Below, in pieces: positions 1 through 58,990 of a stretch of 64,000 nt of DNA (position 1 is the stretch's first letter; each line of letters begins with the position of its first letter). Under the pieces are notes generated by a model. That model had not been told where the DNA came from. It saw only the letters and a list, made by a program, of their open reading frames with translations, and searched no databases. Made by a program: the position numbers and the translations under genes. Source of the stretch: Dehalococcoidia bacterium (GTDB taxonomy: Bacteria > Chloroflexota > Dehalococcoidia > DSTF01 > JACRBR01); the NCBI GenBank assembly GCA_041494685.1, contig JBGQBE010000001.1, forward strand, positions 144,286-208,285. The letters run 5' to 3'.

Positions 1-1967
1 ACGTCGGACCTGTTACCGCTGGGCAGTCCCAACTCCGAATCTTGAAGTGCGGCTCCAACGGCTTCCAAGGCAACGAGGCGTCGCTTTGCTGAACTCGATT
101 GGAGTGCTTCTTCGATGATTCGAAAACGCTCGAACGCGTCTACTTCGGTGGGAGCGAGGAAAGTGAGGAAGAGCGACTTGAACACACCCGTCGCATTGTT
201 TCCAAACTTCTCGTTCTCGGCTTCAGCAAGCCGCAACAATATCCGTGCTGCGTCCTCGAATGTCTCCCTACGTTCGACGAGACGTTCCAGCGCCCAAACA
301 AGATTCCTTCTTCCTGATGTGAAGCCGAGTAGGCGTTCATCTGAGGCAGGAAGCAAGAGTCGTGTAAGAGTCCCCATACCGGCATCCGGTGCACCACTCG
401 ACACCATGAGGAACAGCCGGGAAGTCCGCTCAGAGTCGAGGTCATCTATCGTGCGAAAAGGACCGCCCGGCCCGAGCAAGACCTCCAACGCGTCGCGAAC
501 ACCGGGAACATCTCCGAGTTCGGCCAGGCGCTCGAAGAGCGCAGTCTTGCTCGCCTCATTTGGAAGCTGATCGAGAAGTTCCTCTATTCGGTGTGATTGG
601 CCGCGCCAGACTTCCGCTGCCTGCCACGTGGCAAGCAGTTCAGGAGAGACGTATCGGTATCGTCCTTTGGCTATGACAATGCCCTGTTGTTGGAGCCGGG
701 CTACCAGCATCTGCATGCGGTTCCACTCGATTCCGACAAACCCGGCCACGGCCTGTCCTTCAACGGCAACATCCGCCTCCCACCCGATACGAGTCAGCAG
801 CGACACTCCTCGCAGAGCATCCATTTCGTCTTTGTCGGCGACGATCAGTTTCGAAACGACTTCCTGCACATCGCGGTCGGTCGGCATCGCATTGATTTCG
901 GTCATGCCCCTTGCCAGACAGAAGGCCACCGGCAAGGCGAGCTTTACGTAGCCACGAGTCTTCTCCGCTATCCAGCGAACTTGGCTGTCGTCCAGAAGCG
1001 GTGTCGCAGCCTTCAGCACTCGCTCCATCGCCTTCTCATCCAGAGGGTCGAGGGCATACACGTTCTGACCATGCGGAGCGCCATGTCCCAATGTGATGAG
1101 GCGGAGGCGACCGCCTGCCGCCTCGGCCCATTGCTCGTATTTCTTTGAGTCACCGTCGTCGCACTCATCGACGATGAGCGTAAGCTCGATGTGGGCGTTC
1201 GCTGCGACCCAGTTGAACAGTTCTATTGGTACTTCTTGTCCATACAGGCTCACGCCAGCCAACCCTTGGGCCTTAACTGTTTCAAGCACCAGGCGGGTCT
1301 TCCCCACTCCCGCTTTACCGGTGACTCGCGCATGAGACGTTGTCGGCGCTGCCGAGAACATGGTCCGACTCAGGGCATCGATGGTGGCCTCACGCTGTGG
1401 GTCCGGGTTGAATTGAGTGGCGTGTTCCTCACTTTCGAGAATAACGTCAGCACGCTGGTACCCAAAGATTGGTCTGCCGAGCATGAAGAGTGTTGCTGGA
1501 ACCTTCGTCGCCCATCGTGCTATCTGGTCTGCAAAGAACACACGGACTGGTCCCGTGCATCCCACCGCCATTGCCATCTCTGCAATGGTTTCTCCGCGTG
1601 CGAGTTGTCGATTCGCAGCCATGCTCTGGCCGACGACGAGCGTATAACCTGCACCCTTCTCGAACTGCTCTTGCGCTGCTCGCGCGCCTTCCAGATCCTT
1701 CTTGAACCGGTCGAGGTTTCTCGGCCACCGCTTCTTGAATTGCCAAACCGTAAGCCCATCGAGAACGAACCTTGCCACTGAACCCGGGTTGTCGGTGAAT
1801 GCATCGATGCCCCCGTCGGGGTCATGGATCTTGAGGGTAATCTTCACGCGCTCTGGGGGAATGTGCACCGACATGGCGTCTTCCCAGATGAGCAGGTTGC
1901 ACAGTTCTACTAGCTGCTCTTCGGCAAGCCCGGTGATGTCTTTAGCTACAACCTCGAATGCGGACGC
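1..1967 (-). CDS. Partial (C-terminus beyond the window start) Mrr-like PD-(D/E)xK nuclease fused to a P-loop STAND/AAA-type NTPase with a long helical C-terminal region; Avs/NLR-like antiviral defense candidate
   Basis: My own reverse-complement translation from ATG at 1965-1967 (MASAFEVVAKDITGLAEEQL...) gives an uninterrupted ORF to position 1 (>650 aa). Motifs read in the translation: IHDPDGGIDAF...DGLTVWQFKKRW (Mrr_cat-like DGGID...QxKRW), Walker A TGKAGVGKT, Walker B LTLIVDECDD. The region is ~55-58% GC versus ~70% in the rest of the window. The gene is absent from the ORF track, probably because it is open at the window edge. Confidence 0.6.
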
Positions 1968-2228
1968 CATAGGAGGATTCTACAATGGGAGGGCGTTCCC
2001 TGGATGGCCGCCACGGCGCGAGCGCGCCACGGGCCGTGGTTCGAGCGTACGGCCAACCGCGACGCATGGGGAACAGCGCCGTGCGCCCAGATTAGCGGCG
2101 GGACGAGGAGAGCGCCACCGGGCTGGCTGCCGACGCCGGCGACTCCGGCGCCGCGAGCGCGCGCCAGCGGCAGCCAGCACACGGCAACATGAAACCGGCG
2201 CGTCAGCTCGGCCGGCGCACTGCCCCGT

Positions 2229-3770
2229 TCAGTCGATGCGGTAAAGGATGTAGTACGGCTCGTCGGCGCGGAACGTCTCGGTCAGGTGGAAGCGGGCCGT
2301 CACGGCGTCGTAATAGGCGTCGAAGGCGGGTCCGCCGTTCCCCATGTTGTCCTTCTCGTGCTCAAAGTAGGTGTACAGGTAGTAGACCGGCACGCCGCGC
2401 GCACGCGCCTGGCCTATCCGGTCCACCATGGCTTGCACCCGCTCCGGCGTGTTGCCCGCCGGGAGCGAATAGTCGATCAGGTCCACGTACTGGATCCGGG
2501 GGCTGCTGCCGATGACGCCCCGCGTGCCCGCGCTCACCAGCATGCTCCCGTCTGGTAGGCCCGCGATCACGGGGCGGAGTTGGCGGTACGCGGCCTCGTT
2601 CGACTGGGCGGCGGCGGTGGGCCAGCGGTACAGCATGACGGCATCGACCGCAAACCAGACCAGCGCCAGCAGCGCCATCGCGCCAAGCGCGGCGCGCATC
2701 GCCGTCGCGCCGCGGCGCTCGCGCAAGCCGGGCGCCATGCGCGCGATCGACGCAGGCGCGTGCGCGGCGAGCAGCAGCGCCAGCGCGAGACCCGGCAGCA
2801 TGTATCGCCCGTTCGCAAAGGGCAGCGGCGCGTGTGCGACCGGCCAGACGGCCAGGATGTACGCCGCAGCCAGCAGCAGCGGGCGATTGCGGATCCACAG
2901 CTCGCGCGCGCCAAGCGCCGCGAGGGGCGCGATGATCACACCGCTCGTCATGCCAAGCTCCGCGGCCAGGTAGAAGGGGATGTGCGCGCCGACCGTCGCG
3001 AACGTGATCGGCGCGCCGGTGGCGGTGCCGGTCCAGCCGCCGATGTATGCGAAGATCGCCGAGACGGCCACGAGCACCGCGCCCGCCAGCACCAGCTCGC
3101 GTTGCAGGACGCGGCCGAGCAGCGCACGCGGCGTGAAGGGCGCGCCCCCGCTGGCGCACCAGTAGATCAGCAGCGCCGGAAGCATCGCCGCGTCGGTAGC
3201 GCGGACATTCACGGTTATGCCGAGCATCAGCCCATAGAGGGCGAACCACGCAAGCCCGCGGCCGCGCATCACCGGCACCAGCAAGATGGATGAGATGATC
3301 CAGGTCGTCCCGACGATGTCGAAGAGGCAGTCGCGCGAGAAGTAGACGAACTGCGGCATGATCGCCAGGGCCCCGGCGAACAGCGCGGCCGCGAAACGGT
3401 CGCCGGTCGCCTTCAGCACCAGTGCGTAGGAGAGGGCAATCAGCACGAGCGAAGACCCGATGATCACGACCTGCATCGTGGCCAGGCTTTGCGGCAGGAA
3501 CAGGAAGAACGGCGCCATCGTGGCGGCGACGCCCGGCGGGTACAGGCCCGAGAGCGGAAAGTCGGCCGCCACCAGGCGCCGCGAGGCGGCCAGCTGCTCG
3601 TACGTGTCCGGCGTCCACGTCTGGAGATCGAAGCGCCAGGTCCGCAGCAGCAGCGCCAGCGCGACGATGCCGAGCGGCACGGCCACCGCCCGCGCGATCG
3701 CGGGGACGCCCGCAAGCCAGCCGACCGAAAGGTCAGCCTTGCCAAATCGGCTGTAGGTGAGTTTCGTCAT
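2229..3770 (-). CDS. GT-C fold membrane glycosyltransferase (ArnT/PMT-like, uses a polyprenyl-phosphate-sugar donor) with a C-terminal soluble domain
   Basis: ORF 2229..4019 (-). At least 10 predicted TM helices followed by a soluble C-terminus. Start trimmed to the ATG for MTKLTYSRFGK because the upstream 80 aa are Arg/Pro-rich filler. Confidence 0.7.
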   Translation of the reverse strand: MTKLTYSRFGKADLSVGWLAGVPAIARAVAVPLGIVALALLLRTWRFDLQTWTPDTYEQLAASRRLVAADFPLSGLYPPGVAATMAPFFLFLPQSLATMQVVIIGSSLVLIALSYALVLKATGDRFAAALFAGALAIMPQFVYFSRDCLFDIVGTTWIISSILLVPVMRGRGLAWFALYGLMLGITVNVRATDAAMLPALLIYWCASGGAPFTPRALLGRVLQRELVLAGAVLVAVSAIFAYIGGWTGTATGAPITFATVGAHIPFYLAAELGMTSGVIIAPLAALGARELWIRNRPLLLAAAYILAVWPVAHAPLPFANGRYMLPGLALALLLAAHAPASIARMAPGLRERRGATAMRAALGAMALLALVWFAVDAVMLYRWPTAAAQSNEAAYRQLRPVIAGLPDGSMLVSAGTRGVIGSSPRIQYVDLIDYSLPAGNTPERVQAMVDRIGQARARGVPVYYLYTYFEHEKDNMGNGGPAFDAYYDAVTARFHLTETFRADEPYYILYRID

Positions 3771-3975
3771 CCAGGTGCCCGGAGTGCCGTCAACGCGCGT
3801 CGGTAGAAGTATCGGCAGCGGGCACCCCGCCTCAGAGGCCGCGGGGTCTCGGGAAGCCAAGATCCGGCGACCGTGAAGCTGTTCCGGCGCCGGGGTTAGT
3901 GCCGGCGCAACGGCCACGCAGCGTCGCGGGGCGCGATTCGACCCCACGATGGCCTCGTCGGGTACGCTTCTCCGG

Positions 3976-5124
3976 ATGAAGATCGCCATCGTGTACGACG
4001 CCCTGTTCCCGTACGTCAAAGGCGGCGGCGAACGCCGATACTACGAGCTTGCGCGCCGCCTCAGCGGCCGCCACGACGTGCACATGGTCTCCTGGCACTA
4101 CTGGCCGGGCCCGTCCCGCGCCGTCATCAACGGAATCACGCATCATGGCACCGGACGCCCCCCGGACTTCTACGGCGCGGACGGCCGCCGCCGCATCGCG
4201 GAGGCCGCCGCGTTTGCCGTGCGCGCGCTGCCGGTGCTGCTCCGCGAACGCTTCGACGTTATCGACTGCGCGTCGGTGCCGTTCCTGCCGCTCTTCAGCT
4301 CCGCGCTGGGCGTGCGCGTCCGTGGCGGCAAGCTGGTGGCGACCTGGTTCGAGTACTGGGACGACTACTGGCTGACCTACCGCGGCGGCGCGTCCGGACG
4401 CCTGGCGCGGCTGGCCGAGCGCACGTCCGCGCGGCTCGGCGCGGCGCAGATCGCCATCTCGCAGACGACGGCCGACCGCATGGCCGCGGGCCGGCCGACG
4501 CGCGCGCCGGTCAGCGTGATCGAGCCCGGCGTCGACCTCGACCGCATCCGCGCGGCGCACGCGCCGCCGAAGTCGAGCGACGTCGTCTTCGCCGGGCGCC
4601 TCAACGCGCAGAAGAACGTGTCGCTCTTGCTCGAAGCGGTCGCGCAGGCGGCACGCACGCCTGGCGCGTTCACCTGCACCATCATCGGCGACGGGCCGGA
4701 GCGCGCGCGCCTCGAGGCGCTGGCGCGGCGGCTCGGCGTGGCCGGCCGCGTGATCTTCCTCGGGCGCATCGAGGACGACGCAGCGTACTACTCGGCGATC
4801 AAGTCGGCGCGCGTGTTCGCATGGCCATCCGTCGCCGAAGGGTTCGGTCTCGCCCCGCTCGAGGCGATGGCGTGCGGCGTGCCCCCGGTGGTCGCCGCCT
4901 CCGACTTCAGCGCGACGGAGTCGCTCGTGCGCGACGGCGAGACCGGGCGCGTGGTCCCGGCGGATCCGGCGGCGTTCGCCGCGGCGATCCGCGGGCTGCT
5001 CGGTGACGCGAAGCTGATGCGTACGATGAGCGCGGCCGGGGGCGCCCGGGCGGAGCGATCCGGCTGGGACGCGATGGCGCGCGCCGTGGAGCGCGTCTAC
5101 GTCGAGACGGCCGGACGTGCGTAG
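3976..5124 (+). CDS. Glycosyltransferase family 4 (GT1/GT4 retaining GT)
   Basis: ORF 3949..5124. Start at MKIAIVYD. C-terminal EGFGLAPLEAMACGVPPV motif typical of GT4. Confidence 0.8.
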   Translation: MKIAIVYDALFPYVKGGGERRYYELARRLSGRHDVHMVSWHYWPGPSRAVINGITHHGTGRPPDFYGADGRRRIAEAAAFAVRALPVLLRERFDVIDCASVPFLPLFSSALGVRVRGGKLVATWFEYWDDYWLTYRGGASGRLARLAERTSARLGAAQIAISQTTADRMAAGRPTRAPVSVIEPGVDLDRIRAAHAPPKSSDVVFAGRLNAQKNVSLLLEAVAQAARTPGAFTCTIIGDGPERARLEALARRLGVAGRVIFLGRIEDDAAYYSAIKSARVFAWPSVAEGFGLAPLEAMACGVPPVVAASDFSATESLVRDGETGRVVPADPAAFAAAIRGLLGDAKLMRTMSAAGGARAERSGWDAMARAVERVYVETAGRA

Positions 5125-11352: not shown

Positions 11353-11377
11353 AGCAAAGAAAAAGCCCCTACCGCCG

Positions 11378-11432
11378 TTGGTAGGAGCCATCAGCCCTCG
11401 CGGGCAGTCCGGGCGAGCCCCATCGCCCGTAG
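11378..11432 (-). promoter_or_regulatory. Fluoride riboswitch (crcB RNA motif) with terminator-type expression platform
   Basis: Minus-strand RNA GGGCGAUGGGGCUCGCCCGGACUGCCCGCGAGGGCUGAUGGCUCCUACC is near-identical in architecture to the Thermotoga petrophila fluoride aptamer. It is followed by hairpin CCUACCAACGGCGGUAGG plus GGCUUUUUCUUUG immediately 5' of the crcB ATG. Confidence 0.85.
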
Positions 11433-11484
11433 CCGATGCTCCAGTGTAGTGCGGAGCGCCGGCTACGGGCAACGGGTCGCGTCA

Positions 11485-13311: not shown

Positions 13312-14760
13312 TCAGAGCAGCGGGCGCGCCGTCGGCTCGATCGGCGCTGCGAGTTGCGTCTCCCCCGCGAGGTGTCGGTCGACGCCGGCGGCGCACGAGC
13401 GCCCCTCCGCGATCGCCCACACGATGAGGCTCTGGCCTCGCCCCATGTCACCGCAGGCGAACACGCCCGGCACGCTGGTCATGAACGAGCCGTCGCGCGC
13501 GACGTTGCCGCGCGCGTCGAAGCCGACGCCAAGGCTCTCGAGCAATCCATCCCGTTCAGGGCCCACAAAGCCCATCGCCAACAGGACGAGCTCGCAGGGC
13601 AGCTCGAAGTCGGTGCCCTCGATCTTCTCGAAGCGGCCGTCCACCATCTCGACCTCGTAGGCGACCAGCGCACGCACGATCCCGTCTTCGTCGCCGACGA
13701 AGCGTTCCGTGTTCACGCTGAAGACGCGCTCGCCGCCTTCCTCATGGGCCGACGACACGCGGAAGACGTTCGACCACATCGGCCACGGGTTCGTGGGCGC
13801 GCGGCGCTCGGGCGGCCGCGGCAGGATCTCGAACTGGTGGACCGACAGGGCGCCCTGGCGGTGCGCGGTGCCGAGACAGTCGGCGCCGGTGTCGCCGCCA
13901 CCGATGATCACGACGCGCTTGCCGGCCGCCGTAATCGTGGGCTCCGGCAGGTCGCCCTCCTGCACCCGGTTGCCGATCGGTAGGTACTCCATGGCCTGGT
14001 GAATCCCGCGCAGCTCGCGTCCGGGGATCGGGAGGTCGCGCGCGGCGGTCGCGCCGCCGGCGAGGACCGTCGCGTCGAACCCGCGGAGTTCGGACACCGC
14101 GACGTCGACACCCACGTTGGCGTTCACGCGGAACTCGGTGCCCTCGGCGCGCATCTGGTCGAGCCGGCGGTCGAGGTGCCGCTTCTCCATCTTGAACTCG
14201 GGGATGCCGTACCTGAGCAGCCCACCGATGCGGTCGGCGCGCTCGAACACCACGACGTCGTGTCCGGCGCGCGTCAGCTGTTGGGCCGCGGCCAGGCCCG
14301 CCGGGCCCGATCCGACGACGGCTACACGCTTACCGGTCCGAACCGACGGCACGATCGGCTGGATCCAGCCTTCGGCCCACGCACGATCGACGATCTCGAC
14401 TTCCACCTGCTTGATTGTGACCGGGTCCTGGTTGATCCCGAGCACGCACGACGCCTCACACGGCGCGGGGCAAAGCCGCCCCGTGAACTCGGGGAAGTTG
14501 TTCGTGGCGTGCAGCCGCTCGATCGCCTCTCGCCAATGATCTCGGTATACGAGGTCGTTCCAGTCGGGGATCAGGTTGCCGAGCGGGCACCCGTTGTTGC
14601 AGAACGGGATCCCGCAATCCATGCAGCGGCCGGCCTGCTGCTTGAGCGTGTCGCGCTCGAACGGCTCGTACACCTCGCGCCAATCGTGGAGCCGCACCGA
14701 CACCGGGCGCCGCTTGGGTGTGATCCGTCCCCATCTCAGGAAGCCGTTCGTCTCACCCAT
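13312..14760 (-). CDS. gltD: Glutamate synthase small (beta) subunit
   Basis: [14 protein letters not shown] dinucleotide fold. Fe-S Cys clusters near the N-terminus. Start [11 protein letters not shown] overlaps the gltB stop by 8 nt. Confidence 0.9.
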
Positions 14761-17700
14761 GTGCCGCCGCCATGACCCGTTTGAGCGTCTCTTCCTCGGA
14801 CCAGCCCGACGCGGCCGCCTCGTGCATGACGGCGAGCACACGCTTGAAGTCCTGGGGCATCACCTTGCGGAACGACTCGACTTCGCTCTCCCACTGTGTG
14901 AGCAAGCGGTCGGCGACATCGGAGCCAGTGAGCTCGCGATGACGCTCGACCGTCGCGCGCAGCCACTCACGGTCGTCGAGCGTGAGCGGTTCGAGCTCCA
15001 CCATTTGGTAGTTGACCAGCGCGGGAAAGCGGTCGTCAGGGTCATAGACGTACGCGACCCCACCTGACATCCCGGCGGCGAAGTTCCGCCCGGTCGGTCC
15101 CAGCACGACCACCCGTCCGCCGGTCATGTACTCGCATCCGTGGTCGCCGATACCTTCGGCGACCGCCGTCGCGCCGGAGTTACGCACGCAGAACCGCTCG
15201 CCCACCATGCCGCGCAGGTACGCCTCACCCGACGTCGCGCCGTAGAGCACGACGTTGCCGGCGAGGACGTTGTCCTCGGCCGCGAAGAGCGCGTCCCGAT
15301 CGGGGTGCACGATCACAATACCGCCGGACAGGCCCTTCGCGGTGTAGTCGTTGGCGTCGCCTTCAAGTCGCAGCGTGATGCCGCGAGGTACGAACGCGCC
15401 GAAGCTCTGACCCGCCGATCCGCGCAGGTGAATGCGGATCGTGTTGTCAGGAAGTCCGGCGCCACCCCACCGCTTCGTCACCTCTGAGCCGAGCATCGTG
15501 CCCACGGAGCGGTTCGTATTGCGAACGGGAGCCTCGATCTCGACGCAGCTTCCGTCAGCGAGCGCGGCGGCGGCCTGCTCGATGAGTTGGCGATCGAGGG
15601 CCCGTTCGAGGCCATGATCCTGACCACGGCTGCAGAAGCGGGCGCTCTCGTACGGGTTGTCCGCCTCCGCGAGGATGGGCGCAAGATCGAGGCCGTGCGC
15701 CTTCCAGTGGTCGATTGCCGCTCTCACGTCGAGCACCTCGGTATGCCCGATCGCTTCGGCGATCGAGCGGAAGCCCAGTGCCGCGAGGTACTCGCGCACC
15801 TCTTCGGCGATGAACTCGAAGAAGTTGACGACGAACTCCGGCTTCCCGGAGAAGCGCTTGCGCAGCTCGGGATTCTGGGTCGCGATCCCGACCGGACAGG
15901 TGTCGAGGTGGCAGACGCGCATCATCACGCAACCGCTCACGACGAGTGGCGCGGTGCCGAAACCGAACTCCTCGCCCCCGAGCAGCGCGGCGATCAACAC
16001 GTCGCGCCCCGTCTTCAACTGTCCGTCGACCTGCACAACGATCCGGTCGCGCAGGCCGTTGCGCATGAGCGTCTGCTGCGTCTCGGCAAGGCCGAGTTCC
16101 CAGGGCGCGCCAGCGTGTTTGATCGACGTGAGCGGCGACGCGCCGGTGCCGCCGTCATGGCCCGAGATGAGCACGACATCGCTGTGCGCCTTCGCCACGC
16201 CGGCGGCAACCGTGCCAACGCCCACCTGGGCGACGAGCTTCACGTGCACGCGCGCGGCCGGGTTGGCGTTCTTCAGGTCGTGGATGAGCTGCTTGATGTC
16301 CTCGATCGAATAGATGTCGTGATGCGGCGGCGGGCTGATCAGGCCGACGCCCGGTGTGGAGTACCGGGTCCTGGCAATCCATGGGTACACCTTGTGGCCG
16401 GGGAGCTGACCGCCTTCGCCAGGCTTCGCGCCCTGGGCCATCTTGATCTGGAGATCGTCCGCGTTGACGAGGTACTCAGACGTCACACCGAAGCGGCCCG
16501 ACGCAACCTGGTGCACGGCCGAACGACGGAGATCGCCGTTCGCATCGCGCACGTAGCGGTCGGCGTCTTCGCCGCCCTCGCCGGTGTTGGACTTGGCACC
16601 GATCCGGTTCATCGCAATGGCGAGAGTCTCGTGCACTTCCTTCGAGATCGAACCGTACGACATCGCCCCGGTCGCGAAGCGCTTGGTGATCTCGCTCGCG
16701 GGTTCCACCTCGTCGATCGGGACGGGCGGGCGCACACCCTCGCGGAGCGTGAACAAGCCGCGCAGCGTGGCCAGGCGCTTCGACTGGTCGTCCACAAGGC
16801 GCGTGTACTCCTTGTAGACGTCGTATCGCTTGGCTCGCGTCGCGTGCTGGAGCTTGAACACGGTTTCGGGGTTGAAGAGGTGGTACTCGCCCTCGCGGCG
16901 CCACTGGTACTCGCCGCCCAGCTCGAGATCGCGATGAGCGAGCTCGGCGGGTCGGGGGGCGTAGGCGCGCCGGTGGCGACACGCGACCTCTTCCGCGATT
17001 TCGTCGAGGCCGATGCCACCGAGTCGCGATACCGTGCCGGTGAAGTACTCGTCCACAAGTTCGTGGCCCAGCCCGATGGCCTCGAAGACCTGCGCCGCCC
17101 GGTACGAAGCCACGGCGGAGATGCCCATCTTCGACATCACCTTCAGCACACCCTTGCCGGCTGCCTTCACGTAGTTCTTGATGGCCTGGTGCGGGGCCAT
17201 CTCACCCAGCCCGTAGAGCCCTTGCGCGACGAGGTCCTCTATCGACTCGAAGGCGAGGTACGGGTTGATCGCGCCCGCGCCGTACCCGATGAGCAAGGCC
17301 ATGTGGTGCACCTCACGCGCGTCACCGGTCTCCAGCACCAGACCCACCTGGGTGCGCTTGAGCTCACGGATGAGGTGGTGATGCACCGCGGACACGAGCA
17401 GTAACGAAGGGATCGGGGCAAGGTCCGGCCCGGAGTCGCGATCCGAGAGCACGATGATCCGCACGCCCTGTGCGATCGCCGCCGACGCTTCGGCCCGCAC
17501 GCGGTCGAGTGCTTCGCGCAACGCCGCCCCGCCACCCGCGACCCGGTAGAAGCCCGAGATCACGCGTGCCGCGAACTCCGGCCGGTCGCCGTCGTCGTTG
17601 ATGTGGATGAGCTTGGCCAGCTCGTCGTTGTCGAGGATCGGGAAGGGCAGAGCGATCTGGTGACACGCGTCGGGCTGGGCGTCAAGCAGGTTGCCCTCGG

Positions 17701-19348
17701 CGCCGATCGTCGACGCGAGCGAGGTGACGAGCTCTTCACGGATCGCGTCGAGCGGCGGATTCGTGACCTGCGCGAAGAGCTGCTGAAAGTAGTCGAACAG
17801 CAGCCGGGAACGCACCGACAACACCGCCACCGGCGTGTCGGAGCCCATCGAGCCGATCGCCTCGGTCCCTGTTTTGGCCATCGGCGCCACGAGGAGCTTC
17901 AGCTCCTCGTGCGTGTACCCGAACGTCATCTGGCGTCGGACCACCGACTGGTGCGAATAGACCATGTGCGCCCGGTCAGGCAGATCACTCAGGTGCACGA
18001 GACCCTGTTCGCACCATTGCTCGTACGGATGCGCCGTAGCGAGCGTGGACTTGATCTCTTCGTCCTCGACGACGCGGCCCAGGGAGGTGTCGACAAGGAA
18101 CATCTTCCCCGGCTGCAGCCGGCCCTTCTTGACCACGCGCGCCGGGTCGATGTCGACCACGCCGGTCTCGCTCGCCATGATCACCCGGTTGTCGTCGGTG
18201 ACCCAGTAGCGGCTCGGCCGCAAGCCGTTGCGGTCGAGCACCGCGCCGATCACGGTGCCGTCTGTGAACGCGATCGATGCGGGCCCGTCCCACGGCTCGA
18301 TGAGCGACGCGTGGTAGCGATAGAACGCGCGCTTGGCCGCCGACATCGTGGCGTGGTTCTCCCACGCCTCCGGGATCATCATCAGCACCGCGTGCGCGAG
18401 CGAGCGGCCGCCGAGATGCAAGAGCTCGAGGCACTCGTCGAAGCTCGCGGTGTCGGACGATTCGTCCGTGATGATCGGGAAGGCGCGCTCCAGGTCGGGA
18501 ATCAATGGTGTTGAGATCTGCGCGGAGCGCGCGCGCATCCAGTTGCGATTGCCCTGCACCGTGTTGATCTCGCCGTTGTGGGCGAGGTAGCGGTACGGGT
18601 GCGCGAGCGGCCACGATGGGAACGTATTGGTCGAGAACCTGCTGTGCACCAGCGCGAGCGCCGACTCGATGCGCGGGTCGCGCAACTCGACGAAGAACTC
18701 ACCGAGCTGCGGCGTCGTCAACATACCCTTGTAGACCAGCGTACGGCTCGATAGCGAGGGGAAGTAGATCGACAGGTCGGCGGGGATCTCGTGCTCGATC
18801 CGGTTGCGCAGCACGAACAGCTTGCGGTCAAGGTCGATGCCCGCCGACCCCGCCGGGTCGGTGACGAAGCAGTGCCAGAAGCCGGGCATCACCGCGCGCG
18901 CGGTCGGCCCGATCATCGAGTCGTCGACGGGAACGCTTCGCCAGCCGATGACCCGCAGACCCTGTTCCTCGGCGAGGTCCTCCACCACGCTGCGCGCCTT
19001 CATGGCCGCGTTCGCCTCCGATGGGAGGAACGCGAGCCCGACGCCATAGGCGCCGGCGGGCGGGAGCGAGAACCGGGTGACGCCGCGGAGGAACGCATCC
19101 GGTACCTGGATGAGAATCCCCGCGCCGTCACCGGTGTTGACCTCGGCGCCCGATGCGCCGCGATGGTCGAGATTGCAGAGCGCGCCGAGAGCTGTGGCGA
19201 CGATGTCGTGGCTCTTGGCCCCCGTGACGTCGACGACGAAGCCAACGCCACACGCGTCGTGCTCGAAGCGGGGGTCATAGAGACCGCTCGCTTCGGGCAA
19301 CGCGCTGAACGGCAGAGGTCGCCTTGTCAGCTCCTCGGGAGTGGGCAC
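14753..19348 (-). CDS. gltB: Glutamate synthase large (alpha) subunit
   Basis: Amidotransferase N-terminus DACGVGF after a ~31-aa propeptide. Start set at GTG (VPTPEEL) with GAGGA 5 nt upstream. 1531 aa. Confidence 0.85.
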
Positions 19349-19521
19349 GTTTCCTCGCTTCTGGTGATCATGGTCCCGTCGCCGGTCCTGGCGTCTGCGT
19401 CCGGCGCACCCCGGTGCGACGGGCACCCGGCGATATCGGAAGCAAATCCGGTACCGCAGGCACCCCGCTCTGGATCGGGCCTGTACAGCGGATATTCCAC
19501 GTCTAACCCTGCTTGCGCGAT

Positions 19522-19551
19522 GTGAAGTGGGGCAATTGTAACACACTTCAC
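19522..19551. promoter_or_regulatory. Inverted repeat GTGAAGTG-N14-CACTTCAC containing TGTAACACACTTCACA, ~175 nt upstream of gltB; candidate nitrogen-regulator operator
   Basis: Palindrome read directly. Its gltB-sense strand contains TGAAGTGTGTTAC, which recurs upstream of glnA. Confidence 0.45.
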
Positions 19552-19848
19552 AATCGATGCCAGTCCGCCCGCGCCAGCTTCGGCCCGGACTCGCCGGAGA
19601 ATTGAATAAGGGTCGCCACAGCGACCCCCCTCAGCCCCGGGACGGCAGTGCCGCTCCGACGAGAAGACCTTTGAATTGCACGATACTACCCTAGCCCTCC
19701 AGCTTTGACAAGACCACCGGCTCCGATTCCGTCTCGCTCAGGCGCGGAGCGCCTGCTCGGCCGGCCACCAGCGCTTGACGTGAGCCGCCGACCTGTCGCA
19801 CACTCGCTTCACATTTCGCAGCCACAAGTTCGGAAAGGAGCTCCACCC

Positions 19849-20202
19849 ATGGCCGGTCGCAAGTACGGCGTGATCCTCTACGCGCGCACCCCGTCCAACT
19901 ACGCGGCGATGTCCGCCGCCGAGCGCGCGAAGCCCGGCAAGGCGTTCGAGCAGACGCTGAAGCAGTACGCCGGCAAGGTGGACCTGCTGCGGCGCTACTG
20001 GACCAGCACGTTCACCACCGAGTCGTCCGACGTGTTCGTGATGGAGTGCGACGACCCGGCACAGATGCACGCATTCCAGGAGGACCTCGACAGGGCGATG
20101 GCGCGCGGCGGCGGCGACCCCGGCCGCTTCGGCACCACCGTGCACGTCACCTTCGGCATCAACCCCGACGCCGACGCGCCAAAGGCGAAGGCGCGCAAGT
20201 AG
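19849..20202 (+). CDS. Hypothetical small protein (possible dimeric alpha+beta barrel fold)
   Basis: GGAAAGGAG RBS, ATG 19849, 117 aa. ORF 19705..20202 trimmed. Confidence 0.5.
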   Translation: MAGRKYGVILYARTPSNYAAMSAAERAKPGKAFEQTLKQYAGKVDLLRRYWTSTFTTESSDVFVMECDDPAQMHAFQEDLDRAMARGGGDPGRFGTTVHVTFGINPDADAPKAKARK

Positions 20203-20226
20203 CCGCACATCGCACGAGAACAGAGA

Positions 20227-20270
20227 CGGCGGCCGATTTCGCGGCCGCCGCCTCTCTTGAGTTCTGTTGT
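20227..20270 (+). terminator. Rho-independent terminator (CGGCGGCCG-AUUUCG-CGGCCGCCG stem-loop followed by U-rich tract)
   Basis: Perfect 9-bp GC stem followed by CCTCTCTTGAGTTCTGTTGTCTG. Confidence 0.5.
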
Positions 20271-20303
20271 CTGTTGTCTGTCTAGTAGCCGCCACAGGCG
20301 GCG

Positions 20304-20624
20304 CTACCAGATCCCCAGCTGCATCTTCACGTCGTCGCTCGCCATCGTCTTCGGATCCCACGGCGGCGAGAACGTCAGCTTGTTGATCACCTGCTTCACG
20401 CCCGGCAGGTCGATCAGCACGTCCTGGATCTGACCGTCGATCACGGCGCCCAGCGGGCAACCCGGGCTCGTCAGCGTGTACGTCACCGTCACGACGCCGT
20501 CGTCCGTGATCTCGACGCCGTACACCAGGCCCAGTTCCACGATGCTCATGTGGATCTCCGGGTCGAAAACGTCCTTCACCCGCTCCATCACCAGCTCTTC
20601 TGACAGCAGGCCCTTCACCGACAT
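20304..20624 (-). CDS. sufT: Fe-S assembly protein SufT (DUF59/MIP18 family)
   Basis: TSPGCPLG motif. Last gene of the suf operon. Confidence 0.75.
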   Translation of the reverse strand: MSVKGLLSEELVMERVKDVFDPEIHMSIVELGLVYGVEITDDGVVTVTYTLTSPGCPLGAVIDGQIQDVLIDLPGVKQVINKLTFSPPWDPKTMASDDVKMQLGIW

Positions 20625-26471: not shown

Positions 26472-27113
26472 CTACGCCTTCGGCGGCGCCGATTCCGCGT
26501 GCTCGCGGACTACGTACTCACACATCGCGTGGCCGTCCACCACGCGGCTTCTCTGCTCCACCGGCATACCCACCAGCAGCTCGATCACCATGTGGTCGGC
26601 GTGGCACGGCGCGCCCGACGCCTCGGCCGCCTTGCGGTACGGGCACGACGTGTTCATCAGGTGGAAGCCGTCGTCGTCCTTCCGCCAGTGATCGACGATG
26701 CCCTCGTCCTTCAGCGCCGCGCTGGTCTCCGCAACGCGCTCGCTCAGCGTCGTCCCGGTCACCGCGGTGCGATACGACCCGGCGATGTCTTCCGCCACGC
26801 CCGCGAACACCTGCTGCATCACGGTCGACTTCTGGTCGTCCGGCAGCGCCTCGATGCTGCGGAACATCCGGTTGATCAGGCGCGGGTACTGCGCGTTCAT
26901 CTCGTGGGCGCGTTCTGTCAAGTAATACAGATACGACGGCCGCCCGATCTCGTGCCTTCGCATGCGGAAATCGACCATCCCCTCCGCGCGCAGGACATCG
27001 AGGTGGCGGCGGATGTTCGCCTGGTTCAGCCCCAGTTCGAGCGCAATATCGGCCACCGTAGCTTCGCCACGGGCCGCCAGCACGTCTCTCATCAGGTCGC
27101 GGGTAGATTTCAT
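26472..27113 (-). CDS. sufR: SufR-like HTH transcriptional regulator (Cys-containing C-terminus)
   Basis: N-terminal winged-HTH ([18 protein letters not shown]). C-terminal Cys residues. Heads the suf operon. Confidence 0.7.
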
Positions 27114-44120: not shown

Positions 44121-44153
44121 AAGGGAGCGGAACGGGGGGCAGGGTTCGTCAAT

Positions 44154-44169
44154 GAAGTTTGTGTTACCA
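44154..44169. promoter_or_regulatory. TGAAGTTTGTGTTACC motif ~65 nt upstream of glnA, shared with the gltB upstream region; candidate nitrogen-regulator operator
   Basis: The same GAAGT-(0-2)-GTGTTAC core occurs on the gltB-sense strand at 19522..19553. Confidence 0.4.
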
Positions 44170-44231
44170 GCGCCCGCACCCACGCCGCCTCACCGCCTAC
44201 CTCGATACAATGCCGCCGAGGAGACACCACC

Positions 44232-45560
44232 ATGCGCGACGACCAGAAAGACTACGTCCTCAGCACCTGCCGCGATAAGGACATCAAGTTCATCCGGCTC
44301 TGGTTCACCGATATCCTCGGCTCGCTCAAGAGCTTCGCCATCACGGTCGAAGAGCTCGAGGAGGCGCTGGACGAGGGCCAGGGCTTCGACGGCAGCAGCA
44401 TCGAGGGCTTCGCCCGCGTCGACGAGTCCGACATGATCGCCATGCCCGACCCCGCCACCTTCGCGGTGCTGCCCTGGCGCCCCCGCGAGCGCGGCGTCGC
44501 CCGCATGTTCTGCGACATCCAGATGCCCGACGGCTCGCCCTTCGAAGGCGACCCCCGCTTCGTGCTCAAGCGCCAGCTCAAGCGCGCCGCCGACCTCGGC
44601 TACACCTTCTACGTCGGCCCGGAGCTGGAGTTCTTCTACTTCAAGTCGTCCGACGCCCCCGTCGGCCTCGACAAGGGCGGCTACTTCGACCTCACCCCGC
44701 TCGACGTGGCGAGCGACCTGCGCCGCCAGACCGTGCTCACGCTCGAAGAGATGGGCATCGGCGTCGAGTTCAGCCACCACGAGGTCGCGCCCAGCCAGCA
44801 CGAAATCGACTTGCGCTACACGGACGCGCTGACCATGGCCGACAACGCGATGACCTACCGCCTCGTCGTGAAGGAGGTCGCGCTGGACAACGGCGTCTAC
44901 GCCACGTTCATGCCCAAGCCCCTCGCCAACGAGAACGGCAGCGGTATGCACACCCACCAGTCGCTCTTCAAGGGCGACCGCAACGCCTTCTCCGATCCGG
45001 AGGACGCCTACCACCTCTCGCCGATCGCGAAGTCCTACATCGCCGGCCTGCTCAAGCACGCGCCGGAGATCACGCTCGTCACGAACCAGTGGGTGAACAG
45101 CTACAAGCGCCTGGTCCCCGGCTACGAGGCGCCCGTCTACCTGACCTGGGCGCGGCGCAACCGCTCCGACTTGATCCGCCTGCCGCAGTACAAGCCCGGC
45201 AAGGAGGTCTCGACCCGCATCGAGTACCGTGCGCCGGACGCCGCCTGCAACCCCTACCTCGCGTTCGCCGTCATGCTGGCCGCCGGGCTCGAGGGCATCG
45301 AGAAGGAGTACCCGCTGCAGCCGCCGACCGAGGAGAACGTCTTCGAGATCGGGCCGGAGGAGCGCAAGCGACGCGGCATCAAGACCTTGCCCGGCAGCCT
45401 GAAAGAAGCGATCGAGGCGTTCGCCGACAGCGAGTTCACCCGCCGCGCCCTCGGCGACCACGTCTTCGAGAGCCTGCTCCGCAACAAGACTATCGAGTAC
45501 GACGCCTACCGCCGCCACGTCACCGACTACGAGCTCGACCGCTACCTGGCCGTGCTGTAG
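44232..45560 (+). CDS. glnA: Glutamine synthetase type I
   Basis: 3' part of ORF 42477..45560. GGAGGAGA RBS. KPLANENGSGMHTHQS and NPYLAFA motifs. Confidence 0.9.
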   Translation: MRDDQKDYVLSTCRDKDIKFIRLWFTDILGSLKSFAITVEELEEALDEGQGFDGSSIEGFARVDESDMIAMPDPATFAVLPWRPRERGVARMFCDIQMPDGSPFEGDPRFVLKRQLKRAADLGYTFYVGPELEFFYFKSSDAPVGLDKGGYFDLTPLDVASDLRRQTVLTLEEMGIGVEFSHHEVAPSQHEIDLRYTDALTMADNAMTYRLVVKEVALDNGVYATFMPKPLANENGSGMHTHQSLFKGDRNAFSDPEDAYHLSPIAKSYIAGLLKHAPEITLVTNQWVNSYKRLVPGYEAPVYLTWARRNRSDLIRLPQYKPGKEVSTRIEYRAPDAACNPYLAFAVMLAAGLEGIEKEYPLQPPTEENVFEIGPEERKRRGIKTLPGSLKEAIEAFADSEFTRRALGDHVFESLLRNKTIEYDAYRRHVTDYELDRYLAVL

Positions 45561-58655: not shown

Positions 58656-58990
58656 GCGATCCTCTTCGGCCCGGACGGCATGTAGCGTGCGCGCAGCATC
58701 AGGAATCCGCTCTCCGCACCCGTGCCCAGGTTCGACGCTATGCTAACAGCGAGTCACCTGTACGTCAATTCACAAACGCCGCCCGGCAGCCCCGATCCGA
58801 ACCCAGGATGCGGGCCTCAGACACCCTCGACCAGCAGCATCTGCGTCCGCCCCGCGCGCTGCCGCATCGCCTTCGGTCCGGCGTAGTCCTCCGGGCCGTT
58901 ATGTCGTACAGCGCCGCTGCCACCGGCCCGATCCATCACCGCCGATATACTCCACCGCACAACCGGCGGCCGCAACCCGGGACCTGGATC

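Follow-up and report, generated by a model that had tools for sequence, protein, structure and literature searches.

A candidate Rex-type operator upstream of gltBD and a GlnR-type box upstream of glnA in an uncultured Chloroflexota lineage

The gltB and glnA promoter regions

The upstream regions of gltB and glnA carry short words that look alike, and the question raised by this locus is whether both genes are addressed by one regulator through a common operator or whether two different sites have been taken for one. The window, by which we mean the whole stretch of 64,000 nucleotides that was analysed, has a G+C content of 68% and comes from an uncultured lineage of Chloroflexota; the closest homologues of its GlnA, NuoA and GltB proteins were all from MAGs labelled as Chloroflexi or Dehalococcoidia. 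Gene gltB, encoding the large subunit of glutamate synthase, is placed on the minus strand (14753-19348), with translation from a GTG start at 19348 and the ribosome binding site GAGGAA, and is followed downstream by gltD (13312-14760). A suf operon lies 5' of gltB on the same strand and ends at 20304, and a divergent ORF on the plus strand (19849-20202) gave no Pfam match. Gene glnA is on the plus strand, from an ATG at 44232 to 45560, and encodes a protein of 442 aa.

An inverted repeat is indeed found upstream of gltB, as had been predicted. It reads TGTGAAGTG-N14-CACTTCACA (19521-19552), and its arms (19521-19529 and 19544-19552, 14 nt apart) are 9 nt long, one base more per arm than was claimed. 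The common split word was also confirmed at both genes, as TGAAGTGTGTTAC at gltB (19550-19538, minus strand, gene-sense) and as TGAAGTTTGTGTTAC at glnA (44153-44167, plus strand). The pattern TGAAGT-N0-4-GTGTTAC has exactly two matches in the window, upstream of gltB and of glnA, and GTGTTAC itself is confined to the same two places. The two elements had been said to lie about equally far from their start codons, which is not the case: the one at gltB ends 174 nt before the GTG and the one at glnA about 64 nt before the ATG.

Such features are common in simulated DNA. Some split 13-mer with a gap of 0-4 was shared by 65% of simulated region pairs of the same lengths and composition (the real gltB/glnA pair shares four, three of which are GC-rich), and 23% of simulated regions of 955 nt contained a perfect inverted repeat of at least 9 nt with a loop of at most 40 nt. 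By these generic tests neither the inverted repeat nor the common split word exceeds chance. Since the tests were unimpressive, the question was decided by comparison with relatives and, judged by their conservation in orthologous promoters, both elements are real, and they are different.

A conserved palindrome at the gltB promoter

A scan of genomes with the N-terminus of GltB as query returned matches mostly from Actinomycetota (61-72% identity among the matches listed) and at least two from Chloroflexota (88% and 87%); the exact motif of the original prediction was missing in all 80 loci among the matches listed. A scan of metagenomes added three further loci; its anchor, a conserved ORF in the leader, does not depend on the operator. 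In this way six gltB leaders could be compared, namely those of the window, of L001 and L002 from the genome scan, and of L087, L088 and L089 from the metagenome scan.

A block of 19 nt, TTGTGAAkTGyGkTACAAT, is invariant in all six leaders, and in the same sequences the DNA flanking the palindrome has diverged, with indels as well as substitutions. The right arm of the inverted repeat varies among the leaders (CACTTCACA, CACTTCACg, AACTTCAAg, GACTTCCGg and CACTCCGCA) and the left arm has no change that would compensate for this drift. The arms are 14 nt apart in the window and 13 in L001, and L002, L087 and L088 no longer have the repeat. Because the right arm drifts uncompensated and the spacing shifts, the conserved unit is TTGTGA-N6-TTACAA (19553-19536) and not the N14 repeat. 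We refer to this core of the originally predicted feature as a Rex-type operator, TTGTGAAGTGTGTTACAA, a site of 18 bp placed upstream of gltBD on the minus strand (19536-19553). The right arm itself corresponds to what looks like an additional Rex half-site, TTCACAT (19520-19526, minus strand), at about +3 to +9 of the predicted transcript, which is kept in the window, L089 and L001 and has decayed in L002, L087 and L088.

A reading of the inverted repeat as an RNA hairpin was tried and rejected, since its arms fail to covary, their spacing is not constant (14 or 13), and L002, L087 and L088 have a decayed right arm. In the whole window, the only Rfam match at gathering thresholds was a fluoride riboswitch, and a permissive Rfam scan of the gltB leader (19300-20350) gave nothing credible; as both scans were empty there, the leader matches no known riboswitch.

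The promoter scan predicted a gltB promoter, CTGGCA-17-TACAAT with a TG (19563-19535). Its predicted -10 element, TACAAT (19535-19540, minus strand), is invariant in the six leaders and falls within the right half-site of the Rex-type box, so that the box overlaps the predicted extended -10, TGtTACAAT; the start site is a prediction as well.

A second copy upstream of nuoA

The pattern TGTGA-N6-[GT]TACA has one other match in the window (58774-58759, minus strand), which is placed 104 nt before the TTG start of nuoA (58655). This second Rex-type box, TTGTGAATTGACGTACAG (58758-58775, minus strand), overlaps a -35-like hexamer, TTGACG (58768-58763), and is followed 17 nt further on by a -10-like hexamer, TAGCAT (58745-58740). 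The sequence TTGTGAATTGAC[CT]TACAA occurs at the same place upstream of nuoA in three relatives (L090, L091 and L093). The gltB boxes and the nuoA boxes, those of the window and of these three relatives, have the identical left half TTGTGAA and the right half nkTACAA.

This second copy bears on the suggestion that the gltB block might be core promoter only, that is, an extended -10 with its context kept for promoter strength and without a dedicated regulator. TACAAT with an upstream TG is certainly a good extended -10, and the relatives sampled are all close (GltB 87-88% identical). We consider this suggestion highly improbable, as TTGTGAA is invariant at about -25 to -19, a region in which promoters of the sigma-70 type lack any conserved element, the flanking leader of the same sequences has diverged to the point of containing indels, and at nuoA the same 18-bp palindrome lies over the -35, where TACAAG is no -10.

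Likeness to Rex operators

The published Rex operator is TTGTGAA-N4-TTCACAA (PMC5355995; PMC2883068), and the same consensus is given in PMC6391272, which cites Ravcheev 2012. The gltB site has two mismatches to TTGTGAANNNNTTCACAA (TTGTAACACACTTCACAA on the plus strand) and is the sole match in the window with three mismatches or fewer; the number of matches expected with at most two mismatches is 0.013 per random 64 kb. The closest known system for the gltB and nuoA boxes is that of the Rex operators of S. coelicolor and S. avermitilis (nuoA-N, cydABCD, rex-hemACD) and of S. aureus (TTGTGAAW4TTCACAA), with which they share the 18-bp palindrome, the left half TTGTGAA, the outer ACAA and the overlap with predicted core promoter elements. 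The nuoA-N operon is a direct target of Rex, whose footprint at nuoA1 of S. avermitilis extends from -42 to -16, over the -35 (PMC5355995), and the nuo box described here likewise lies over the predicted -35. The cydA1 and wblE promoters of the same species have a full Rex operator and an adjacent half-site (PMC5355995), as gltB has a full site and a nearby half-site, and since such arrangements are known the right arm of the inverted repeat would be explained. The left arm would then be the left half of the Rex operator, and the right arm an extra and poorly conserved half-site near +1.

There are also differences. In all ten sites (10/10) the right half reads (G/T)TACAA in place of TTCACAA, so that TACAA and not CACAA is found, and the canonical sequence is thereby broken at a G:C pair that Rex contacts. 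The host is an uncultured member of the Chloroflexota, a phylum in which Rex orthologues have been reported (PMC6682613), and unlike the known targets gltBD is undocumented in this role, no report of it as a Rex target having been found in the searchable literature. A search by tblastn with approximate query sequences found no rex gene in the window or in the retrieved loci of relatives, which is weak evidence. No Rex-like box was seen in the 65 actinobacterial gltB upstream regions among the matches listed, because of which a link between Rex and gltB would be specific to this clade.

The CRP consensus is TGTGA-N6-TCACA, with CRP sites reading AATGTGAT, and that of NtcA is TGTA-N8-TACA, with the core GTA-N8-TAC. 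The palindrome of gltB and nuoA could accordingly be a site for a regulator of the CRP/FNR family (Crp/GlxR-like or NtcA-like) and not for Rex, the glnA box being of the GlnR type in this case too. The inner 16 bp of the two boxes are like such sites, with an agreement that reaches 9/10 positions (TGTGA-N6-TTACA at gltB, one mismatch; the nuoA box of the window has two), TGTG-N8-TACA fits the NtcA core at 7/8, and the right half TACA is as in NtcA-type sites. That a CRP/FNR protein is the one that binds seems unlikely to us, however, when the surroundings are considered. The conserved flanks give TTGTGAA...ACAA, which is the signature of Rex, as opposed to the AATGTGAT of CRP, and the flanking T...A, the A after TGTGA, the position and the nuo target all fit Rex better. 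Moreover, the site lies over a predicted -10 or -35, not in the -41.5/-61.5 geometry of activation by CRP or NtcA, and the palindrome is absent from glnA, where an NtcA regulon would have one. The nuo genes are in addition a textbook target of Rex, with an operator over the -35 as here (PMC5355995).

A GlnR-type box upstream of glnA

The element upstream of glnA is of another kind. It reads ATGAA-gtttgt-GTTAC (44152-44167, plus strand), a degenerate form of GTTAA-n6-GTTAC in which the first repeat (ATGAA) is weak. A predicted -10 region, GATACAAT (44204-44211, plus strand), lies 38 nt downstream of the box with no -35-like hexamer, and the promoter scan found no complete promoter of the sigma-70 type at glnA. 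This -10 region is kept in the window, L081, L082, L085, L086 and L097, at 22-27 nt before the ATG.

Orthologous boxes were found at glnA in seven relatives (L081, L082, L084, L085, L086, L096 and L097/98), in both orientations. The sequence is GTTAA-n6-GTTAC in L081, L082 and L085, GTTAA-n6-ATTAC in L084 and ATTAA-n6-GTTAC in L097, and it is inverted in L086 (GTAAC-n6-TTAAT) and L096 (GTAAC-n6-GTAAC). The TGAAGT at glnA, which formed half of the common split word, is peculiar to the lineage of the window, the relatives having TTAAGT, TTAATT, TTAAAT or TTAAGA. Two of the relatives have unusual DNA at this place. In L083 (JADEYI010000119, 2486-2770) a fragment of an IS-type transposase (HTH_Tnp_1) stands directly upstream of GATACAAT, so that an IS remnant replaces the GlnR-type box in a glnA leader of about 235 nt, and in L081 short tandem repeats of the kind CCCTAA / CCCCTAA / CCCTAGT occur immediately upstream of the box (at about 2865-2918).

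Boxes of the GlnR type are present at several nitrogen genes, comprising glnA (8 genomes), amtB-glnK (L094) and a second GS gene (L096). In L094, where amtB-glnK is followed by glnA, the sequence upstream of amtB is GTAAC-n6-GTAAT-n6-GAAAC, and in L096 that upstream of the second GS gene is GAAAC-n6-GTAAC-n6-GTAAA. The retrieved stretches of both loci (1-3826 in each) contain a gene for a glnR-like regulator immediately upstream, the gene order being glnR-like regulator, amtB, glnK, glnA in L094 and glnR-like regulator, 473-aa GS, 441-aa GS in L096. The regulator is an OmpR-family protein of 221 aa with a Trans_reg_C domain and an N-terminal domain of the GlnR type; with Pfam GlnR_1st, for which the cut-off is 27 bits, family member P0259 scored 29.2 bits and P0241 scored 17. 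This family is widespread in MAGs of Dehalococcoidia/Chloroflexi, and no kinase gene adjoins the regulator gene in the retrieved L094 and L096 stretches. Its N-terminal domain (which starts MDELLLVG...) is without the usual acidic pocket, like that of atypical orphan response regulators.

No glnR-like gene was detected in the window by tblastn. The statement that the regulator is not encoded in the window was in fact borne out more generally, since a Pfam search of about 50 ORFs showed no protein of the OmpR, MerR, Crp or Rex type, with which tblastn agrees. An OmpR-family, GlnR-like activator, encoded beside amtB-glnK-glnA in relatives, is probably the protein that binds the glnA box.

To our knowledge, the actinobacterial type of GlnR has so far been described only in Actinomycetota, and the searchable literature yielded no account of GlnR-type regulators from Chloroflexota. 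Published GlnR boxes are gTnAc-n6-GaAAc in S. coelicolor, GTnAC-n6-GTnAC in S. venezuelae and t/gTAAC-n6-Gc/aAAC in M. smegmatis (PMC10704036). The boxes described here match them, being made of 5-nt repeats that recur every 11 bp and standing before glnA, before amtB-glnK and before a second GS gene, and the linked regulator resembles the orphan OmpR-family GlnR in its Trans_reg_C and GlnR-type N-terminal domains. They differ in the host, which belongs to the Chloroflexota, in the second repeat, which is usually TTAAC/TTAAT, in the single box pair at glnA, in an orientation that flips among lineages and in the distance to the -10, which is 21, 28, 35 or 38-39 nt; the copy of the window has, besides, a degenerate repeat (ATGAA). 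The comparison of orthologous promoters thus supports the reading of the glnA site as one for a nitrogen regulator like the actinobacterial GlnR of the OmpR family.

Comparison of the two sites

Two matrices, both trained on relatives only, separate the sites. The Rex-type matrix gave 32.8 bits at gltB, 29.3 at nuoA and 0.8 at glnA, those at gltB and nuoA being the only sites that it found in the window. The GlnR-type matrix gave 19.7 bits at glnA, which is its sole match above 11 bits in the window, and 7.4 bits at gltB, where the sequence matched is GTAAC-acactt-CACAA, the score falls between the 95th and 99th percentiles of the background (99th = 10.7) and the relatives score 3.7-7.4 bits. 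The gltB site does not have the two or more 5-nt repeats (GTnAC/GnAAC, 6-nt spacer) that make up a GlnR box. To judge from the matrix score, weak binding of GlnR at the gltB box may occur. The 11-bp register of GlnR was also tried at gltB and rejected, as it yields TTGTG-n6-GTTAC, which is no repeat.

We are inclined to suggest, with a probability of roughly 60%, that gltB has a Rex-type operator and glnA a GlnR-type box, and that two different regulators, both of known kinds, would act on them. The resemblance between the two regions would arise because each kind of site, the Rex half-site (TTGTGAA / TTGTAAC) as well as the GlnR repeat (GTTAA / GTTAC), is a short AT-rich word with GT-A. Two AT-rich operator half-words in a genome of 68% G+C can in this way be mistaken for one common motif, a trap of some general interest.

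According to the original prediction, one nitrogen regulator (GlnR, TnrA or NtcA-like) acts on GAAGT-N0-2-GTGTTAC at both genes. The split 13-mer is found at these two sites only in the window and is gene-sense at both, the two genes belong to the GS-GOGAT pathway, and the gltB box does contain one GTAAC pentamer. GlnR also governs gltBD in some actinomycetes (PMC10704036). A common operator is all the same very unlikely. The conserved units of the two sites differ, and the common half-words are spaced GT-N10-AC at gltB and GT-N12-AC at glnA, that is, 2 bp wider apart at glnA. The matrices fail to cross-score (7.4 vs 19.7 bits and 0.8 vs 32.8 bits), the TGAAGT of glnA is unconserved, and nuo, although no nitrogen gene, has a copy of the gltB box. 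A shared split 13-mer is, moreover, what 65% of random region pairs would give. The idea of a nitrogen-regulator site survives for glnA, where the GlnR-type box is found in seven relatives, and finds no support at gltB, where the conserved element is a Rex-type palindrome.

The consensus for TnrA and GlnR of the MerR type is a 17-bp palindrome, TGTNA-N7-TNACA, and this spacing is unmet at both genes (N6 at gltB, N8 at glnA). Neither gene has a MerR-type site, gltB having TGTGA-N6-TTACA (16 bp) and the glnA relatives GTTA-N8-TTAC, which is not palindromic. A loose likeness to TnrA/GlnR of Bacillus does exist, in that one nitrogen gene has a site in an activator-type position and the glutamate synthase promoter one in a repressor-type position; unlike the situation in Bacillus, the repeat at glnA is direct and not palindromic, and no MerR-type regulator is linked to it. 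A common site of the NtcA type or of the TnrA type (N7) was likewise rejected, given that its spacing fails to fit both gltB and glnA.

Proposed regulation of gltBD, nuo and glnA

With two regulators, of the Rex and GlnR types, the following scheme can be proposed. What we observed for it are the sequences, their conservation, the motif matches, the recurrence of the box at nuo and, in relatives, the linkage of the gene for the GlnR-like regulator; promoters, start sites, binding proteins and direction of regulation are inferred. The gltBD promoter would carry an operator for a Rex-type repressor that senses the NADH/NAD+ ratio. At a low ratio a Rex dimer on TTGTGAAGTGTGTTACAA would extend over the -10 TACAAT, from about -25 to -8, thereby blocking RNA polymerase, and Rex would also occupy the -35 of nuo. 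Rising NADH would free Rex from the DNA and turn on both glutamate synthase and the nuo operon (NADH dehydrogenase), so that complex I, which oxidises NADH, and GOGAT, an amination step that consumes reductant, would be induced. At glnA, a GlnR-type direct repeat (GTTAA-n6-GTTAC family, 11-bp period) precedes by about 38 nt a -10 that lacks a -35, and the gene would be activated from this upstream box by an OmpR-family GlnR-like protein.

It is conceivable, although we would put it at somewhat less than an even chance, that the halves of the GS-GOGAT pathway respond to different signals, GS, amtB-glnK and the second GS to an actinobacterial-type GlnR, and GOGAT together with complex I to a sensor of NADH/NAD+. 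If this is true, glutamate synthase has been removed from the nitrogen regulon and GOGAT is a redox-controlled electron sink, the link between Rex and gltBD being a clade-specific recruitment. If the scheme is correct, it provides a testable regulatory map of nitrogen assimilation for a widespread uncultured lineage of soil and sediment Chloroflexota, with ammonium uptake and GS under a GlnR-like regulator outside the Actinomycetota and GOGAT co-regulated with NADH dehydrogenase by redox state. It would also extend the Rex regulon to gltBD and GlnR-type regulation to a wider range.

Other features of the gltB leader and its surroundings

The conserved leader ORF of gltB (GTG at 19500, stop at 19327, minus strand) is a decayed copy of the N-terminus of GltB and retains its ...HRGA...TGDG... 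residues. It is in a frame different from that of gltB and runs across the gltB start codon. In all six leaders (window, L001, L002, L087, L088 and L089) it is open despite differing in-frame indels, and most of its substitutions affect third codon positions; L087 has it joined in frame to gltB as a single ORF of 1576 aa. It may be translated as an upstream ORF; alternatively, a partial duplication or 5' replacement may have left it behind.

Between the suf operon and the gltB promoter there is a conserved small transcription unit (19600-19711, minus strand), which is found at the same position in L001, L002, L087, L088 and L089. It consists of a promoter-like element, TTGTCA-17-TAGTAT (19711-19683), and, about 70-90 nt past it, a GC hairpin (19627-19610) with a T-rich run behind it. 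Compensatory changes occur in the stem across lineages (GGGGTCGC/GCGACC vs GGGCGCC/GGCGCTC), the body is unconserved, the fold z-score is -2.2 and no Rfam match was obtained for 19600-19711. The unit could be a small RNA or a leader that ends in a terminator. In L088 only, a sequence unconserved elsewhere, GTAAT-gctcgg-GTAAC (at about 4315-4330), scores 12.7 bits with the GlnR-type matrix and overlaps the promoter of this unit.

The suf operon is headed by a gene for an ArsR/SufR-like winged-helix regulator of 213 aa (26472-27113, minus strand) and contains sufC, sufB, sufD and genes for a Rieske protein, a cysteine desulfurase, a NifU-like protein and a FeS_assembly_P protein. The fluoride riboswitch (RF01734, 44.8 bits; 11375-11436, minus strand) is placed upstream of crcB; a DUF190 gene and a SnoaL-like gene follow, and a gene of the aquaporin family (MIP) lies just upstream.
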